A stretch of 64,000 bases of DNA from a virus. The notes below the pieces were generated by a model that was not told the origin of the DNA, made no database searches, and saw only the letters and a program-made list of their open reading frames with translations. Position 1 is the first letter of the stretch. Each line of letters starts with the position of its first letter. The DNA lies in the IMG/VR virus record IMGVR_UViG_3300019360_000007, positions 19,088 through 83,087 of that record; one strand, 5' to 3'. The position numbers and the translations under genes are program-made. This document shows, in pieces, positions 23,445 through 29,400 of this stretch.

Positions 23445-26400
23445 CTAACCTCCGAGATTCGAGCGCAGGTTGAACGTGATCACAATATAGAGCAAAGGAA
23501 AAATCGGTTGGTAGAATGCTTCCACCTCCACAACGGTGGGGTCGTTCGTTGTGCGCGCCTGGATGCCGGTGAACGCCGCGATGATCTCGGCGTTCTTGAG
23601 CGCCTTCATGGTGGTCGCGAGCTGGCCCTCGATCTCGGACAGGACGCCCGGCAGGAACTTGATGCCGATGAACCTGTCGAGGTCGCGCCGCGCTGCCCTC
23701 TGGACCTCGTCGGCGATGGTGATGACCGTCGGGAGCTTCGTGAGGATGTTCGTCGGATCGGTCGTGAGTCCCTGCCGGACCCGGATGACCGTCCCCCGCT
23801 GCTCCATGACGGTGACGCCCTGCACGGCGACCTGGTTCTGCTCGACCGCGTCGAGTTTGCGGGCCAGCTCGTCGAACCCGACGATCCGAGCCCTCGTCCA
23901 CGGGGTCGCCACGTCGATGTTCGGCGACGCCCTGTTGCCCGCCATGGCGGCCGCGAGGTAGGTACCGTCCACCAGGAACTGCTTGAAGTTCCCGAGCGCG
24001 TCCTGGATCGTCAGGGTGACGATGTCCGGGTACACGAGGCGGATGCGCGTGTTCTCGATCTGCTGCGCGATCCCGCCGACTTCCGTGGGCTGCGTGCCCG
24101 AGGCCACGCCGATGATGCCGGTCCGCTCGGCGCGGAACCGGATGCTGGACTGGATGTCGCAGTGGTTGCTGAGCTGGAGGAACAGGTCGATGTCGTCGCC
24201 CCGCATCGGGGTGATCGTGTCGAGCACCGCGCCTCCAGGCAGAGAACCGCGCAGGTCGTTGAGCGCGTCGCTGTAGCTCTGCGTGCTCGCCTGGTTGCTT
24301 CCCGGGATCTTCGGCACCTGCTTGATGCCGAGGACCACGGCTCCGTTGAGGAACGCCAGGAACGCCGCGAGGGAGACCTGGTTGTCCGGCGTCGTGTCCC
24401 CGTAGTTCCGCTCCACGGCCCTCTGGCTCGTGAAGAGCATCGTCTCGAAGTCCGCCGCCGTCTTCGCGTAGTTGTAGGTGATGAAGTAGGAGTCCCCGAC
24501 GGCGGGCTCCTGGCCCCCGCGGTCGAAGGTCTCGACGATGGCCGTGTCGCCCTGCGGGATCGACGATCCCTCGGTGTTCGCCACGATCAGCTCGAGCCCG
24601 GAGATCGAGTTGACCGGGATGTTCGCGTCGGTCGTGACGAGCTTGCGCACCTGGAACGTGAACGAGGCCCCGGCCCCCGTCGGGTAATCGGCCCCGCCCG
24701 TGCGCGGGAGAATCGTGAACACGAGACCCGTCACCGTGTCGCGGTAGCTCTGGCTGATCATCCCGTCCTGGCCCACGCCGCTGTTGAAGCACGACGTGTT
24801 GGCCGAGCCCGACCCGTCGACGGGGTCGCTGCTCGTGACGAAGAAGCCCTGGAACCCCGACTCTCCCGCGGCGCCCTGGCCTGACGTGACGCCGAGGCCC
24901 GTCCCGGTGAGCAGCCAGTCAGCCGTGGTCGCGGTCTCGAACAGGATGTTCGACGAGGACCCGAGCCCGACGATGTTGTTGGCCTGGCTCTCGATGAACA
25001 GGAACTCGTTGTTCGCCGAGTCGCGCTCGACTCCCGCGAGTGCCTGGGCCGCGAACCACGTCAGGTCAGGCATCTGGTAGTCGAGGATGGCCCCGTTGAT
25101 CGTCGAGCTGTGGTGCATCATCAGCGCGGAGGCCACGAGCTCGGGATCGACCGTCGAGCGCGCCGCGGTCGCGCCCTCGGAGAACCCGAGCACGTTGTTG
25201 GCATTGCCGTTGCCGAGGGTGATGGCCGAGTTCGTGGTCACGATCCCGCTGACGAGGCGGATGCCGGCACCCTCCTGGGCCACCACGGAGGCCGGGAGAC
25301 CGGCCCCGACCGCGGCGTCCTGGATCTGCTTGAGCACCGTGTTCGGGAACGTGATCGGTCCGAGCGGCACGTCGGCCTGTCCGGCCGCCGGGATCGCCGC
25401 GCCCACCGAGTCCTTGAAGACGACGGTGAACGCGGTCCCGTCGATGTTCACCTTCCAGACGTTGTTCTGCGGGTTCACGCCGCCCGACCCGTAGAAGCGC
25501 ACGCGAGGCTGGCCATCGCGAGCGTCAGCGAAGGTACCGGCCGGGACTTGGCCGTCCTTGAAGCCGACCTCTCCGAACAGGGACGCGGGACGCAGCGTGG
25601 CCTCGATCCCGGCGAGGCCGACAGCCTTGGGCTGCAGGCCCGTCTCCGTGACCGCGTTCGTGCCCTGCGTGATCAGGCTCGTCTGCGCGACCTGGCTCTG
25701 CGGCTCCAGCGAGCCGGAGCCGGGGAGGACGCGGTTGCGCATGATGATCCGGTCGTAGATGAGCCGTCCCGACGTTCCCGACACCGTGAAGCGGCGCGCG
25801 ATGTCGCCGTCCACGATCTTGGTCTGCTCCTGGCTCGGCAACGCGTCCGTGGACAGGCCGCAGATGATGGCGAAGTCCTCCGCGACGGTGGCGCCGTCGA
25901 GGAATTCCCAGACGCCTCCGCCGAGACCGGAGCCTCCCGTGAGTGTCGCGCCCGATACCGGCAGGCGGATGGCGGTCGAGCTCGCCAGGGTGATGAAGTT
26001 GCCCGTCGGACCGGGCACCGCCGCCGTGATGTCGACGACGGCCGAGGTGCCGCTCGAGTTGTCCGCGGTCACGATACCCACGAGCCCGTTCAGCGCGTCG
26101 GAGATGGCTGCCACGAGGGACGACGCCACCTGCACCGTCGTCGCGCCGCCCACGAACGTCGCTCCCGAGACGGGCAGGCGCACACCGGTCGACGAGGCAA
26201 TCGTGTAGGTGTTGCCGATCACGCCGGGCGTGTCGGACCAGACGGTCACCGTGGTGCTGGTGCCTCCCGCGTTGTCGGCCGACACCGCGGCCGCCAAGCC
26301 GTTGCCGAGGTCGTTGATGGCGGCCACGATGCTGCTCGCGACCGTGAGGTTCGTGCCCACGCCGCCCGCCAGCGTCGGACCGCTCCGGATGAGCCTCGTC

Positions 26401-29400
26401 GCGCTGCTGCTCGCGAGGACGATGGTGTTGCCGGCGTTCCCCGGCGTGACGGCCGTGATCGTCACGACCGCCGCGACGACACCGGTGAACACGAGGGCGG
26501 GGAGAGACGCCGTGATCGACGCCCCGAGCGAGGTGGCGACGGTGGTGTTGTCGCCCACGCCACCGAGCAGCGTGCCCGCCGAGAGCGTGATCCTCGTGGC
26601 ACCAGTCGACTCCATCAGCAGGATGCCGTTTCCGACGGTCCCCGGCGTGAAGGACATGATCGTGACGACGTTGCTGGTGCCGCCCGCGTTGGTCGCGACG
26701 ACTCCTCCCACCAGACCGTTGCCCGCGTCGGCGATGGCTGCCACGAGACTCGTGGCGGCCGAGATGTCGTCGCCCACGCCTCCCGTGAGCGTCGCGCCGG
26801 AGAGCACGAACCTGCCCGCGGCGGTCGTGCTGAGCGTAATCGTGTTCCCCACGGCTCCCGGCGTGACGGCCGTGAGGACCATGGTCGTGGCCCCCGAAGA
26901 CGTCGCGGTGACGTCCACGGCGAACGAGTTGGCGACGTCGTTGACGGCCGCAATCGCGTCGTCGCGCGCGGACGTGTTCGTGCCCAGGCCGCCCGCGAGC
27001 GTCGCGCCGGCGAAGGTGAGGCGCGCCGGCGCGGTCGACACCGTGGAGATGGAGTTGCCGCCGGTCCCGGGCGTGATCGCCCGGAGGTCCACCGTGGCCG
27101 ACGTGCCGCCCGTGTTGTGCGCCTGCACCGTGCTGGTCAGGCCATTGAGAGGATCGAGGATGGCCGCAACGATGGCGGTGGCCGTCGTGATCTCGTCGCC
27201 GACGCCGCCGGCAAACGTCGCGGAGATCGTGACGGTGCCGTCGGAGGACAGGTTGGCCACGGCGTTCGCCGCCATGCCCGGCACCGTCCACGTCACCGTG
27301 ACGTCGTTCGGACCGGGGCCGACCGCCGCGCTCGAGAACGCGGCGAACGAGTTGAGCGGGTCGTTGAGGGCGGCCGCGATGTCGGCGGCGATGGCCGCCG
27401 TCGTGCCCAGCGTGTTGTCGTAGTCGTTCGCGCCCGGAGTACGAGGACCGCCGGCCGGGACGAGGACGTACGGACCACCCGCGATGGCGCCGGTGTCGAT
27501 GGTGATCGTCGCCGACGAGGGGGAGGCCGTCACCGTGATCGTCGCCGTCGCCTGGGTGCCAGCATCGAAGTTCAGTCCGCCCGGCGTCGTAACGTTGTCC
27601 GCCGTGAGCGGGATGCCGGCGATGGTGATCGTGTCCCCGTAGAGCACGCCCGTGCTCGGGAGCGCCGTGGTGACGACGGTCAACGTGCTGAGAGCACGCA
27701 CGCCCGCGAAGAAGTCGTCCGCGCCCGAGGTGCGGGCGACGTCGACGGGAGTCAGCACGTTGCCGTTGAGCGTGAGCGTGTCCGCGGCGACGACCGGGTA
27801 CGGGGCCGCCGAGGCCACCCGGACGCCGCTGAACCCGACGGTTCCGGTCGCGGCCGTGCCGACGTTGAAGTCGAGGCCACCCGGCGTCAGGGTGTTGCTC
27901 GCCGTGAGGGTCACGGGGCCGCCACCGACGACGGACGTGTCGATGGTGATCGTGTCCCCGTACTGGACGCCCATTAGAGTGGCCGTGCCCGACGCACGGG
28001 TGCCGACGTCGAACTCGTTCGCCGCCGGTGCCCCCGAGACGCCGAGGAACACTTGGCCGTCCACGGTGACCGTGTCGCCTGGGATCGGCCCGGCGACGGT
28101 GATGGTGCCCGTCGCGCGCGTGCCCTCGTTGAAGTTCAGGCCGCCCGGCGTCTGGGCGCCGGCCGCCGTGATCAGGACAGGTCCGCCGCCGGCATCGATG
28201 GTGAAGGTGTCGCCCGGCTGGACGCCCATCGGCATGAGCGTCGCGCGTGCTTGGCCCGTGTCGAAGTTCTGCGCGCCCGAGATCTGCGCGAGATCCCCCG
28301 TCAGGGTCACGCCGTCGATGGTGACGGTGTCTCCGAGAACCGCGAGGGCCGAGGTCACGGTCCCGGTGGCGAAGGTGCCGAGGTCGGTCGGGGTCGCCGA
28401 GAACGTGAACCGCATGCCTCCGTCGGCGTTCGCCGTGCACGTGATGTCCATGCCGGAGAAGCTGGCGGGGAGCGCCCCGATGGCCGTCTGGAGCGCGGAG
28501 TCGACCGCCGCCGCCATGGTCGTCGGCGACGTGTAGGTTCCCGGGGCGATGGTCGCCGTGACGGGACCCGTGGGTCCGTTGGTCACGCCGGTGTAGTTGA
28601 AGACGAGCTTGTCGTAGCGCCCGGCCGTGATCACCGTCGACCCGAGGAACCTCGTCGTCCCGTCGAGGAAGGGGTTGTTGGCGACGAGCTTCGCCTCGGC
28701 GTTGATCGCCTCGACGTACGCGTCGGCGTTCACCGCCGTCTGCGAGGGCACCGTGACGGTGACGACGACGCCGTCCACGGTGAACGACACGTTGTCGTTG
28801 ATCCCGCTGAGGATGTCGTAGGTCGTCTTGCCGGAGTCGTCGGTGTACTGGATCTCCTCGCCGAGCAGGCTCGCGTAGAACCCGAGCCCCTGGATCCCGT
28901 GCGGGGCGGAGAGGTCGATGCCCGCCGCTCCGCCCGCCAGCGCGCTGCTGTCGATGGTGAAGCGGGCCCGGTCGGACGCACCCGAGACGAAGAAGTACGG
29001 GCCGGCGCCCGGCACCGTGAACTTGGCGATGGTCGCGTCCTTGTCCGCGAACTGGACCGTGACTGTCTCCTCGACCGGCCCCTGCGTGCCGCCCTCGAAG
29101 TGAACGTCGGGCGTGAGCTCGCTGCCGGAGGGGAATTCGATGGTCACGCCCGTGAGCGCGGGACCCTTGCTCCCGAACTTCGGCGTGTAGATCGGGTTGC
29201 CGTTCTTGTCGAACAGGAAGTACGTGCCGATGCCCGACGGTCCGCTGGTCTCGACCTGGACCGTGTACTCCTCGTCGACCATGATGTTGTACCAGAAGGT
29301 CGCGAAGACGTCGGCACCCACGGGAACCGGGTTCTCGAGCGTGATGATCGTCCCCTCGACCTTGGTCACCGACACGGCGCCCCGGTTGAGCGCGTCCTCG

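Follow-up and report, generated by a model that had tools for sequence, protein, structure and literature searches.

How is a phage protein of 2,480 residues put together, and how do the repeated segments in its middle pair with one another? The question is raised by P0001, a minus-strand gene (ORF 23445..30887) in the 64,000-nucleotide stretch of viral DNA analysed here, called the window, whose positions serve as coordinates throughout. The translated product has a mass of about 253 kDa, which makes it approximately four times as large as T4 gp18. Forty-two further intact homologues of 2,420–2,489 aa are known, and the family including P0001 thus has 43 members.

Judged by homology, P0001 is the sheath subunit of the contractile tail of a huge uncultured phage. 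In tblastn, its C-terminal 451 aa match 223 phage records that include genes annotated as tail sheath; the match to one such gene product, gp326 of Tunturiibacter phage Tunturi_5, has 30% identity (E=1e-39), and the sheaths of cluster-C mycobacteriophages match at 25% identity (E=3e-16). In the library, 841 proteins match the same region at E<=1e-3. No Pfam sheath family, PF17482 (Phage_sheath_1C) included, matches P0001 directly. Its membership in PF17482 is supported transitively by two relatives, P0248 and P0262, which are 38% and 37% identical to the C-terminal 451 aa (E=1.3e-76 and 1.6e-66) and score 34.1 and 37.5 bits, respectively, at a cut-off of 26.9. The N-terminal 400 aa are matched by 103 of 149 family representatives, about 640 to 2,138 aa long, the matches mostly starting at residues 2–10 of the representative (phmmer). 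Common to the family are the N-terminal 400 and C-terminal 450 aa, while the middle varies in length; conserved terminal parts around variable inserted domains are what is expected of a sheath.

As for the neighbourhood, nine of ten neighbours of P0001 have no PHROG match. No tube or baseplate gene was recognised among them, apart from the 808-aa ORF 1634..4060, which matches Phage_base_V weakly (E=0.0099, below the cut-off). The homologous sheath gene of Tunturi_5 adjoins the genes of a tail terminator and a minor tail protein. Outside the repeat array, the parts of P0001 are as follows.

29688..30887, minus strand: conserved N-terminal sheath part (aa 1–400); phmmer.
28374..29687, minus strand: intermediate region before the array (aa 401–838); mean identity about 70% in the 43-member family.
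24801..25925, minus strand: intermediate region after the array (aa 1655–2029); conserved in the family.
23448..24800, minus strand: conserved C-terminal sheath core (aa 2030–2480); tblastn, library matches, PF17482 in relatives.

Residues 401–838 have no family match and presumably form the host domain or domains of the array. In the region after the array, aa 1809–1911 resemble aa 186–284 of the same protein (E=7e-7).

The array itself is an insert of 816 residues (aa 839–1654), whose units were cut by eye and then aligned with MAFFT. The first-pass annotation had described seven consecutive N-halves followed by seven consecutive C-halves, turning near 27405, and this is the arrangement found. 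N1–N7 occupy aa 839–1161 (27405–28373, 40–52 aa each) and C1–C7 aa 1162–1654 (25926–27404, 66–73 aa each), with the turn at 27404/27405; the lower bound moves from the 25933 given earlier to 25926. In the list, each N-half is given with its proposed partner.

28251..28373, minus strand: N1 (aa 839–879), outermost N-half, partner C7; alignment, HMM, co-evolution.
28119..28250, minus strand: N2 (aa 880–923), partner C6; alignment, HMM, co-evolution.
27999..28118, minus strand: N3 (aa 924–963), short 'APAANEF' type, partner C5; alignment, joint swap.
27855..27998, minus strand: N4 (aa 964–1011), partner C4; alignment, HMM, co-evolution.
27699..27854, minus strand: N5 (aa 1012–1063), 'RTSGADDF' type, partner C3; alignment, motif.
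27555..27698, minus strand: N6 (aa 1064–1111), partner C2; alignment, co-evolution.
27405..27554, minus strand: N7 (aa 1112–1161), innermost, contiguous with C1, presumed tip domain; alignment, motif, conservation.
27198..27404, minus strand: C1 (aa 1162–1230), 'NSF' type; alignment, motif.
26982..27197, minus strand: C2 (aa 1231–1302), 'NGL' type; alignment, motif.
26772..26981, minus strand: C3 (aa 1303–1372), 'NSF' type; alignment, motif.
26553..26771, minus strand: C4 (aa 1373–1445), 'NGL' type; alignment, motif.
26355..26552, minus strand: C5 (aa 1446–1511), shortest C-half, without the NG[LI] motif; alignment, joint swap.
26145..26354, minus strand: C6 (aa 1512–1581), 'NGL' type; alignment, motif.
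25926..26144, minus strand: C7 (aa 1582–1654), outermost C-half; alignment, co-evolution, motif.

Leave-one-level-out HMMs, each built from six levels of all 43 family members, recover the left-out level in P0001 for 14 of 14 halves (domain E from 4e-6 to 3e-25, Z=1). The N-type matches are confined to aa 839–1161 and the C-type matches to aa 1162–1654.

In the insert DNA, Tandem Repeats Finder reports no array, just one 23-nt repeat of a 12-mer. A repeat search yields two sets of diverged direct repeats (60–86% DNA identity), with periods of about 198–219 nt in the C part and 120–156 nt in the N part. Two distinct periods would fit an insert with no nesting at all, in which seven N-type beta domains and then seven C-type alpha/beta domains are strung like beads. 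The linear order of the halves alone could be the outcome of two such tandem expansions, and no homology between N-halves and C-halves was detected by HMM. We nevertheless consider this structure very improbable. An N-half of 40 aa would be small for an autonomous domain, and both the counts of halves in relatives and the relations between particular halves, described below, speak against two independent arrays.

Counting of halves in homologues had been proposed as a check of nesting, and the two counts do vary together: equal numbers of N- and C-halves, in the order N then C, are seen in complete proteins at depths 2 (P0315), 3 (P0316, P0317), 4 (P0314, with an additional weak N match overlapping a C), 5 (P0313) and 7. 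P0175 is also of the NNNCCC form, its N matches being weak (0N+3C at E<=1e-3). In the 43-member sheath family, 42 proteins are N7C7 at domain E<=0.01, the exception being P0038 with 6N+7C. Unequal counts occur in three of 19 complete shorter proteins, with weak or partial matches (P0319 NCC, P0326 NCNCN, P0329 NCN). N-halves are short and often escape HMM detection.

Wherever the module occurs singly or in tandem, each N-half is directly followed by a C-half, again contrary to two separate arrays. Single contiguous modules are present in the sheath relatives P0168 and P0174 and, with weaker matches, in P0164, P0171 and P0181, and P0169 has three NC modules in tandem. Within the window, an intact N+C module had been noted in 53704..54768, and it is indeed there, the C-half matching the sheath-derived HMM with E=1.5e-9. 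The gene, P0002, lies next to two paralogues.

54790..55461, minus strand: module-less P0002 paralogue of 223 aa; both ends 40% identical.
53704..54768, minus strand: P0002, 354 aa, small virion-type protein with one contiguous N+C module; HMM, PHROG, paralogue comparison.
53005..53691, minus strand: module-less P0002 paralogue of 228 aa; 36% identity.

P0002 corresponds to its module-less paralogues plus one inserted N+C module at about aa 84–205 (54154–54519). Its N-half gives no N HMM match at E<=0.01 (count 0N+1C), yet in the alignment with the five-level P0313 the sole N of P0002 corresponds to the first N of P0313 and the sole C to the last C. The outermost N and C of P0313, separated by all the other halves, are thus the counterparts of one contiguous module, which again disfavours two arrays.

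Mirror order had first been read from the subtypes: N5 and N7 with the NSF-type C-halves, the short N3 with the shortest C-half, and N2, N4 and N6 with the NGL type. The subtypes are as described; N3 (40 aa) and C5 (66 aa) are the shortest of their kinds, and N2, N4 and N6 are 52–64% identical to one another. However, the match of the even levels is uninformative, since an even i always gives an even 8-i, so that it cannot separate mirror from parallel order. Only N3/C5, N5/C3 and N7/C1 discriminate between the two.

Further evidence comes from co-evolution. In a partial mirror-tree analysis of the 43 orthologues, seven of seven row maxima lie on the antidiagonal N_i–C_(8-i), that of N4–C4 being marginal (0.10 vs 0.06), and among 5,040 permutations the mirror pairing scores highest. 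It also comes first of 5,040 by APC-corrected mutual information (mirror blocks with 1.98% of the top-1% pairs vs 0.84% overall), although N2–C6 is not a row maximum there and the halves from N4 to C4 co-vary as a block too. That the antidiagonal comes out first in two tests is difficult to reconcile with independent arrays. When paralogue identities are compared by a Mantel test, r is 0.82 for mirror and -0.06 for parallel order; the former value is reached by 75 of 5,040 permutations, is hence moderately significant only, and is mostly driven by the outliers N7 and C1.

The types of N3 and C5 are concordant in 43 of 43 proteins, with three changes each on the tree of the C-terminal 800 aa. 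Between the sister proteins P0004 and P0005, N3 is 55% and C5 61% identical, whereas the other 12 halves, including all those in the approximately 480 residues separating N3 from C5, are unchanged at 78–99%. N3 and C5 appear to have been swapped jointly as one unit, which would not be expected of separate arrays. The co-switch amounts to three events (sign test p=0.25), significance being out of reach at that number.

Finally, the halves share a motif code, GGL going with NG[LI], RTxG..D with NS[FLW], and APA with no motif. In mirror order 213 of 301 pairs obey the code, in parallel order 102 of 301; it leaves levels 1, 2, 4 and 6 unordered, and six of 5,040 permutations reach the mirror score. 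The RTxG/NS[FLW] combination is seen in the contiguous modules of P0168, P0174 and P0169 as well.

Matched counts, antidiagonal co-evolution, the N3/C5 swap and the motif code all support, at the level of sequence, the nesting suggested by the first-pass annotation, with N_i going with C_(8-i). That the two would form one domain is strongly supported by the co-evolution, the swap and the P0002/P0313 alignment. Neither of the contrary outcomes named at the outset, unequal counts or parallel or independent pairing, was seen in the sheath family of the window.

The mirror pairs might also form between chains, the N-halves of one subunit complementing the C-halves of its neighbour and knitting the sheath by domain swapping. 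Exchange of terminal strands between sheath subunits is known, and co-evolution cannot tell intra- from inter-chain pairing of identical subunits. However, N7 is directly contiguous with C1, as in the single module, and hence these two must pair within one chain; the same nested-type arrays occur in small non-sheath proteins; and it seems mechanically implausible that neighbouring subunits, which slide past each other during contraction, would swap six discontinuous domains. We regard pairing between chains as extremely improbable.

The structure we favour, with a probability of roughly 80%, is a sheath subunit with seven self-nested domains that would form an out-and-back arm, putatively a bristle with a variable tip. 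The insert would consist of copies of a single portable domain, about 115 aa long, placed between the conserved sheath N- and C-terminal parts. The N-half is predicted to be a beta-hairpin-like 'GDTVTIDG' segment that ends in a '..PGGLxF' or 'RTxGxxDF' loop, and the C-half a helix 'AxxLVAAIN', a loop 'NGL' or 'NSF', and then beta strands '..VTxTAVTPGxxGNxIxL..SGATLxGG'. New copies would have been inserted repeatedly at the junction between the N-half and C-half of the previous copy; therefore the chain would run out through N1 to N7, turn, and come back through C1 to C7, N_i and C_(8-i) folding together as domain i.

The earlier suggestion that recursive self-insertion has no precedent was too strong, as both nested sheath domains and self-nesting of one fold are already known. 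In Si3 of the cyanobacterial RNA polymerase beta' subunit, SBHM-2 to -5 are described as built from distant chain segments in a 150-Å elongated body (PMC10895346), and in a survey of 2.7 million domains Si3 is a six-level recursive insertion, the deepest case illustrated there (PMC13114784). As in Si3, the copies of one fold in P0001 are not in simple tandem, and an elongated body is proposed. In Si3 as described, continuous copies occur beside discontinuous ones and the arrangement branches. The sheath insert instead keeps strictly to the N7C7 pattern, six of its levels being discontinuous; it belongs to the virion surface, and its depth varies among relatives (1, 2, 3, 4, 5, 7). Sequence searches of Pfam, NCBIfam and PDB gave no match to the module in P0001 or P0002, nor was there a Pfam match in 58 members of the P0002 family. 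No SBHM homology was found, the two folds seem unrelated, and the resemblance is architectural rather than familial. Among sheaths, the 'Russian doll' proteins (T4 gp18, diffocin CD1363, DSY3957 and multi-domain 'type 3' phage sheaths) are described as having a core of N- and C-terminal parts with surface domains nested outward, and extra domains can be made up of two chain segments, one running outward and one coming back (PMC6088184, PMC9230969). The highest class of Evseev et al. has 'five and more' domains (PMC9230969). In known sheaths the nested domains are few and of different folds, whereas in P0001 one module is nested seven times.

The seven domains probably stack as an elongated arm on every sheath subunit, roughly 15–20 nm long if extended, by analogy with the 150-Å rod of seven SBHM domains in Si3. 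Partner halves are matched in identity, which drops toward level 7 (N/C, levels 1–7: 65/66, 71/69, 63/60, 67/63, 57/60, 59/55, 57/56%), and the fastest-evolving domain may be placed at the tip. Such an arm may serve as a bristle of the tail surface that adheres weakly or keeps a distance, outside the contraction machinery. The 'hairy' jumbo myoviruses CBB, phAPEC6 and Y3 are described as bearing hair-like tail appendages, proposed to aid in host interaction (PMC7247149, PMC13282480, PMC5259590). Both would have thin projections along a contractile sheath; in our reading of these descriptions the appendages are separate proteins, whereas here the projection would belong to every sheath subunit.

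An alternative, possible but rather doubtful, is that the nested arm lies along the sheath and contacts neighbours, so that it cements or stiffens a tail of unusual length or fixes the distance of tails from cell surface layers. Stabilisation through contacts of additional sheath domains has been discussed as a possible role (Evseev et al. 2022, PMC9230969), conservation of the proximal levels (65–71% identity) comes close to that of the core (73–74%), and the acidic composition of the insert (pI about 4.05, nearly without Lys and Glu) need not mean a ligand-binding surface. On the other hand, the distal levels evolve fastest (55–59%), as would be expected of an exposed tip more than of a lattice contact, and the module is also found at depths 1–5 in small non-sheath proteins, where cementing of a sheath lattice cannot be its role.

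Returning to the projecting arm, we would give even odds to a broader generalization, in which giant-phage virions use the module as a portable surface element that nests in itself, is adjustable in length and makes rigid arms of quantised length in at least three host protein families. If so, phages would extend arms stepwise, through the depths 1, 2, 3, 4, 5 and 7 seen here; the seven levels of this sheath would be the deepest regular nesting of the same domain that we found described, in addition to the nesting that a sheath has anyway; and single levels would be exchangeable as units, though encoded in two distant gene segments. An unannotated PHROGs family that gives no hint of fold or function, phrog_28344, matches P0002 at aa 93–205 (E=2.6e-6) and, weakly, one C-half of P0001 (E=0.0049).

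The tail-sheath protein P0001 carries in its middle an insert of 816 residues (aa 839–1654; window 25926..28373, minus strand), which is composed of two kinds of half-modules, N and C. The features are as follows.

23445..30887, minus strand: sheath gene of P0001, a single ORF (2,480 aa, 253 kDa)
27405..28373, minus strand: aa 839–1161, seven N-halves of 40–52 aa each, cut by eye, the pieces aligned
25926..27404, minus strand: aa 1162–1654, seven C-halves of 66–73 aa each, cut by eye, the pieces aligned

All seven N-halves (N1–N7) precede all seven C-halves (C1–C7), the turn is at nt 27404/27405, and the aligned pieces leave no linkers between halves. 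Thus the first-pass annotation had the coordinates, the half counts and the subtypes right, as well as the statement that the insert is not a tandem repeat: no tandem array was found in it at the DNA level. The direct repeats in the insert DNA are old and fall into just two sets with differing periods; their identity of 60–86% rules out a recent DNA duplication. To avoid circularity, HMMs were built from six levels in all 43 family members and searched against the left-out level, where level i stands for the pair Ni and C(8–i). The left-out level was recovered for 14 of 14 halves, with domain E-values (Z=1) between 4e-6 and 3e-25, and N-type and C-type HMM matches did not cross in P0001. A BLAST match between the N-array and the C-array (26% over 361 aa, composition correction off) was regarded as compositional. 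The insert is rich in Thr, Ala, Gly and Val and acidic (pI about 4.05); it has no Lys, no Cys and only 4 Glu, compared with 29 Lys, 5 Cys and 62 Glu in the remaining 1,664 residues. Lys is absent altogether from 26 of the 43 family inserts.

P0001 is not named by Pfam, PHROGs or NCBIfam, phmmer searches with the parts before and after the insert gave no credible PDB match, and the profile of the whole sheath family had no PDB matches at E≤1. The identification comes from the C-terminal 451 aa, which in tblastn match annotated tail-sheath genes in 223 phage records. The identity is 30% to gp326 (1,204 aa) of Tunturiibacter phage Tunturi_5 (E=1e-39), 25% to the sheaths of cluster-C mycobacteriophages (E=3e-16), and 51% to an unannotated 485-kb uncultured phage. 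A HMMER search of 1.84 billion representatives yielded 841 relatives at E≤1e-3, two of which, P0248 and P0262, exceed the Pfam threshold for Phage_sheath_1C; DUF4815 was not used for assignment of the family, as both its matches (E=2.7e-4 and E=5.7e-4) are below the cut-off. The N-terminal 400 aa are common to 103 of 149 representatives. Since the ends are conserved and the length of the middle varies between a few hundred and about 1,600 residues, the family follows the usual sheath plan. The 441–490-aa "relatives", whose first residue is V or L, are probably fragments. The 83-kb IMG/VR record has a CheckV completeness estimate of 16%, and hence the genome of the source phage should be several hundred kb.

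The insert is conserved in 42 homologues of 2,420–2,489 aa from many independent assemblies, 49–79% identical over this region, so that an assembly artefact or a pseudogene is ruled out by 43 intact proteins. At domain E≤0.01, 42 of the 43 have seven N-halves and seven C-halves, and P0038 has six and seven, respectively. Neither half is detectable by HMM in the sheaths of Tunturi_5 (1,204 aa) and LR745208.1 (1,665 aa), and hence the inserts there are of other kinds.

At the level of sequence, the depth is shown to vary, and the nested, mirror-order architecture (Ni paired with C(8–i)) is strongly supported by six lines of evidence: the existence of N+C as a unit, the matched counts, the relation between P0313 and P0002, co-evolution of partner halves, a swap of one level, and a motif code.

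The unit is seen in P0002 (354 aa, window 53704..54768, minus strand), which corresponds to its adjoining paralogues of 223 and 228 aa with a single contiguous N+C module added. The comparison with these module-less paralogues confirms the earlier observation that the intact module occurs there once. The three paralogous genes (228, 354 and 223 aa) lie in tandem at window 53005..55461, minus strand, their products start with MPYII../MQVFLV.., and only the middle one has the module. One contiguous NC is situated at the array site in other sheath relatives, clearly in P0168 and P0174 and weakly in P0164, P0171 and P0181. In the 1,993-aa sheath relative P0169, the same site (aa 836–1188) is occupied by three modules in plain tandem, NCNCNC, and in P0175 the order is NNNCCC, with weak N matches (E=5e-4, 0.45 and 0.19). 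Both modes of multiplication, tandem in P0169 and nested in P0175, are thus found within one sheath family.

Other complete proteins contain nested arrays of various depths: NNCC in P0315, NNNCCC in P0316 and P0317, four N and four C in P0314 (plus one weak N match overlapping a C), five and five in P0313, and also seven and seven. P0314, P0316 and P0317 (406–522 aa, starting with MAIRST/MVARST) form a third host family with three- and four-deep nested arrays. Twenty shorter proteins yield five nested arrays, five NCNC, six NC, one with N-halves only and three irregular. The N-only protein, P0318, has six N-halves, starts with V and terminates just past the last of them; it is probably cut off. 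The irregular ones, with weak extra matches, are P0319 (NCC), P0326 (NCNCN) and P0329 (NCN). Hence the expectation that the numbers of N and C halves vary together holds for the arrays from N2C2 to N7C7, but not for these three proteins. The N-half HMM is weak, and counts that look unequal may arise at strict thresholds. P0313, a relative of P0002, has five nested modules within the same host protein. The lone N-half of P0002 aligns to the first N-half of P0313, and the lone C-half to the last C-half, which places the four extra modules of P0313 in between.

The co-evolution tests used 43 related orthologues in one MAFFT alignment. Once the tree signal common to all halves is removed, Ni has its best distance-matrix correlation with C(8–i): the antidiagonal provides seven of seven row maxima (0.25, 0.40, 0.63, 0.10, 0.29, 0.33 and 0.20), and no other of the 5,040 permutations scores as well as the mirror pairing, whereas the parallel one (Ni with Ci) averages –0.14. 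In the APC-corrected mutual information, 1.98% of column pairs in mirror blocks fall in the top 1%, compared with 0.84% overall and 0.59% in parallel blocks. The mirror pairing is again the best of 5,040, although N2–C6 is below the maximum of its row and N4 to C4 co-vary as a block too. Linkage cannot explain the signal between N1 and C7, which are separated by about 700 residues.

Level 3 exists in two forms. N3 contains either ..APAANEF.. or ..QTPGGLDF.., C5 is either without or with INDAGNG[IL], and the types are concordant in all 43 proteins; on the tree of the C-terminal 800 aa, N3 and C5 each change type three times. In the sisters P0004 and P0005, N3 is 55% and C5 61% identical, compared with 78–99% in the other twelve halves, a range that includes the approximately 480 residues separating N3 and C5. 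Thus level 3 was replaced as one unit encoded by two separate gene segments. Recombination of a whole block is ruled out as the source of this concordance, since the intervening residues do not co-vary with N3 and C5. With no more than three events, the sign test does not reach significance (p=0.25).

The motif code links the end of the N-half with the loop after the C-half helix: GGL goes with NG[LI], RTxG..D with NS[FLW], and APA with neither. It is obeyed by 213 of 301 mirror pairs versus 102 of 301 parallel pairs, and N3–C5, N5–C3 and N7–C1 are fixed in all best-scoring permutations. The RTxG/NS[FLW] combination is also present in the contiguous modules of P0168, P0174 and P0169. Rare variants of the two motifs are found together too. 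Either NSL or NNL is present in the two proteins with GGM at level 4 (P0011 and P0027). At level 1, the Asn is missing from all four proteins with GSLTW (P0039, P0042–P0044), and the sole GSDNW protein (P0037) has NSL. The mirror order proposed in the first-pass annotation is thus supported by co-evolution, the N3/C5 swap, the motif code and the matched counts. As for the subtype pairing cited there, the match at even levels is real, but it cannot separate mirror from parallel order. In the absence of linkers, one-to-one intramolecular pairing would be possible in the mirror order only. Identity is matched between partner halves and falls from about 65–71% at levels 1–2 to about 55–59% at levels 6–7, a symmetric gradient that would be expected if level 7 were the exposed tip.

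The fold of the module has no match in the searched collections. The P0002-family profile produced only chance-level PDB matches (E=0.2 and 0.38), neither P0002 nor 58 members of its family had a credible Pfam match, and NCBIfam gave nothing credible for a known fold or family. The protein-atlas look-up of P0002 suggested the crAss001 auxiliary capsid protein, which was rejected because the tool does not regard a score as low as this one (0.86) as trustworthy; otherwise it returned unnamed viral clusters only.

The seven domains may stack as an out-and-back arm, which if extended would be about 15–20 nm long, judging by 150 Å for seven SBHMs of Si3, an insertion in cyanobacterial RNA polymerase (PMC10895346). 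No catalytic motif or Pfam family match was seen in the insert. By analogy, our best guess is that the arm is passive and touches host surface polymers weakly through its variable tip; the fast evolution of the tip hints at such an interaction. The same role has been proposed for Ig-like decorations of sheaths and capsids (PMC9230969) and, in "hairy" jumbo phages, for the hairs (PMC7247149). The main functional rival is a stabilising role via contacts among neighbouring subunits. As to the origin, a copy of the module, or an already nested stack, was likely inserted repeatedly into the N/C junction, which fits the alternating subtypes and the depth series.

Nested ("Russian doll") domains are an established plan of sheath proteins (PMC6088184), and jumbo-phage sheaths have up to "five and more" different domains (PMC9230969). 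Self-nesting of one fold is described for Si3, where four of the eight SBHMs are discontinuous (PMC10895346); in a survey of 2.7 million domains published in 2026, Si3 is singled out as a six-level recursive insertion (PMC13114784). Unlike the repeats of Si3, the P0001 module did not prove to be an SBHM in any test run (Pfam, with P0001, P0002 and 58 P0002-family members). The statement of the first-pass annotation that seven-fold self-insertion of one module is not known in a sheath fits the literature searched, in which we found no sheath or other virion protein with one module nested so deeply and regularly, but self-nesting in general has a precedent in Si3.

Should the fold bear out the pairing, this would be an extreme and unusually clean natural case of recursive domain insertion, with seven copies threaded through each other and intermediates of depth 1 to 5 surviving in relatives. 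Repeated insertion at a single permissive loop, as the evolutionary route, would be open to direct testing, and so would the folding problem, as six discontinuous domains would form only once the whole insert is made. About one third of a 253-kDa subunit would be spent on a surface arm, on every tail subunit, providing an alternative way of making a "hairy" tail and, for protein design, a modular, length-tunable rigid spacer.

The sheath contains another repeat, outside the array: aa 186–284 before it (window 30036..30332, minus strand) resemble aa 1809–1911 after it (25155..25463, minus strand) at 29% identity (E=7e-7), with a shared terminal motif ..GNG.AN.VLGF. Directly upstream of the sheath gene is a 326-aa homing-endonuclease-like ORF (30889..31869, minus strand) with GIY-YIG (E=2.4e-5) and NUMOD3 (E=5e-10). 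Directly downstream, a 566-aa ORF (21617..23317, minus strand) has an N-terminal HTH_23 (E=4e-9) and a ROS/MucR-type domain (E=1.1e-9), a regulator-like protein that is odd in a tail gene block. Elsewhere in the window are a 515-aa ORF (19827..21374, minus strand) that matches DUF7717 at E=1.5e-11 and DUF7007 at E=6.4e-19, and a NUDIX/MutT-like ORF (18559..19203, minus strand; phrog_1198, E=9e-13); a MutT/NUDIX hydrolase gene is also present in the neighbourhood of the Tunturi_5 sheath.
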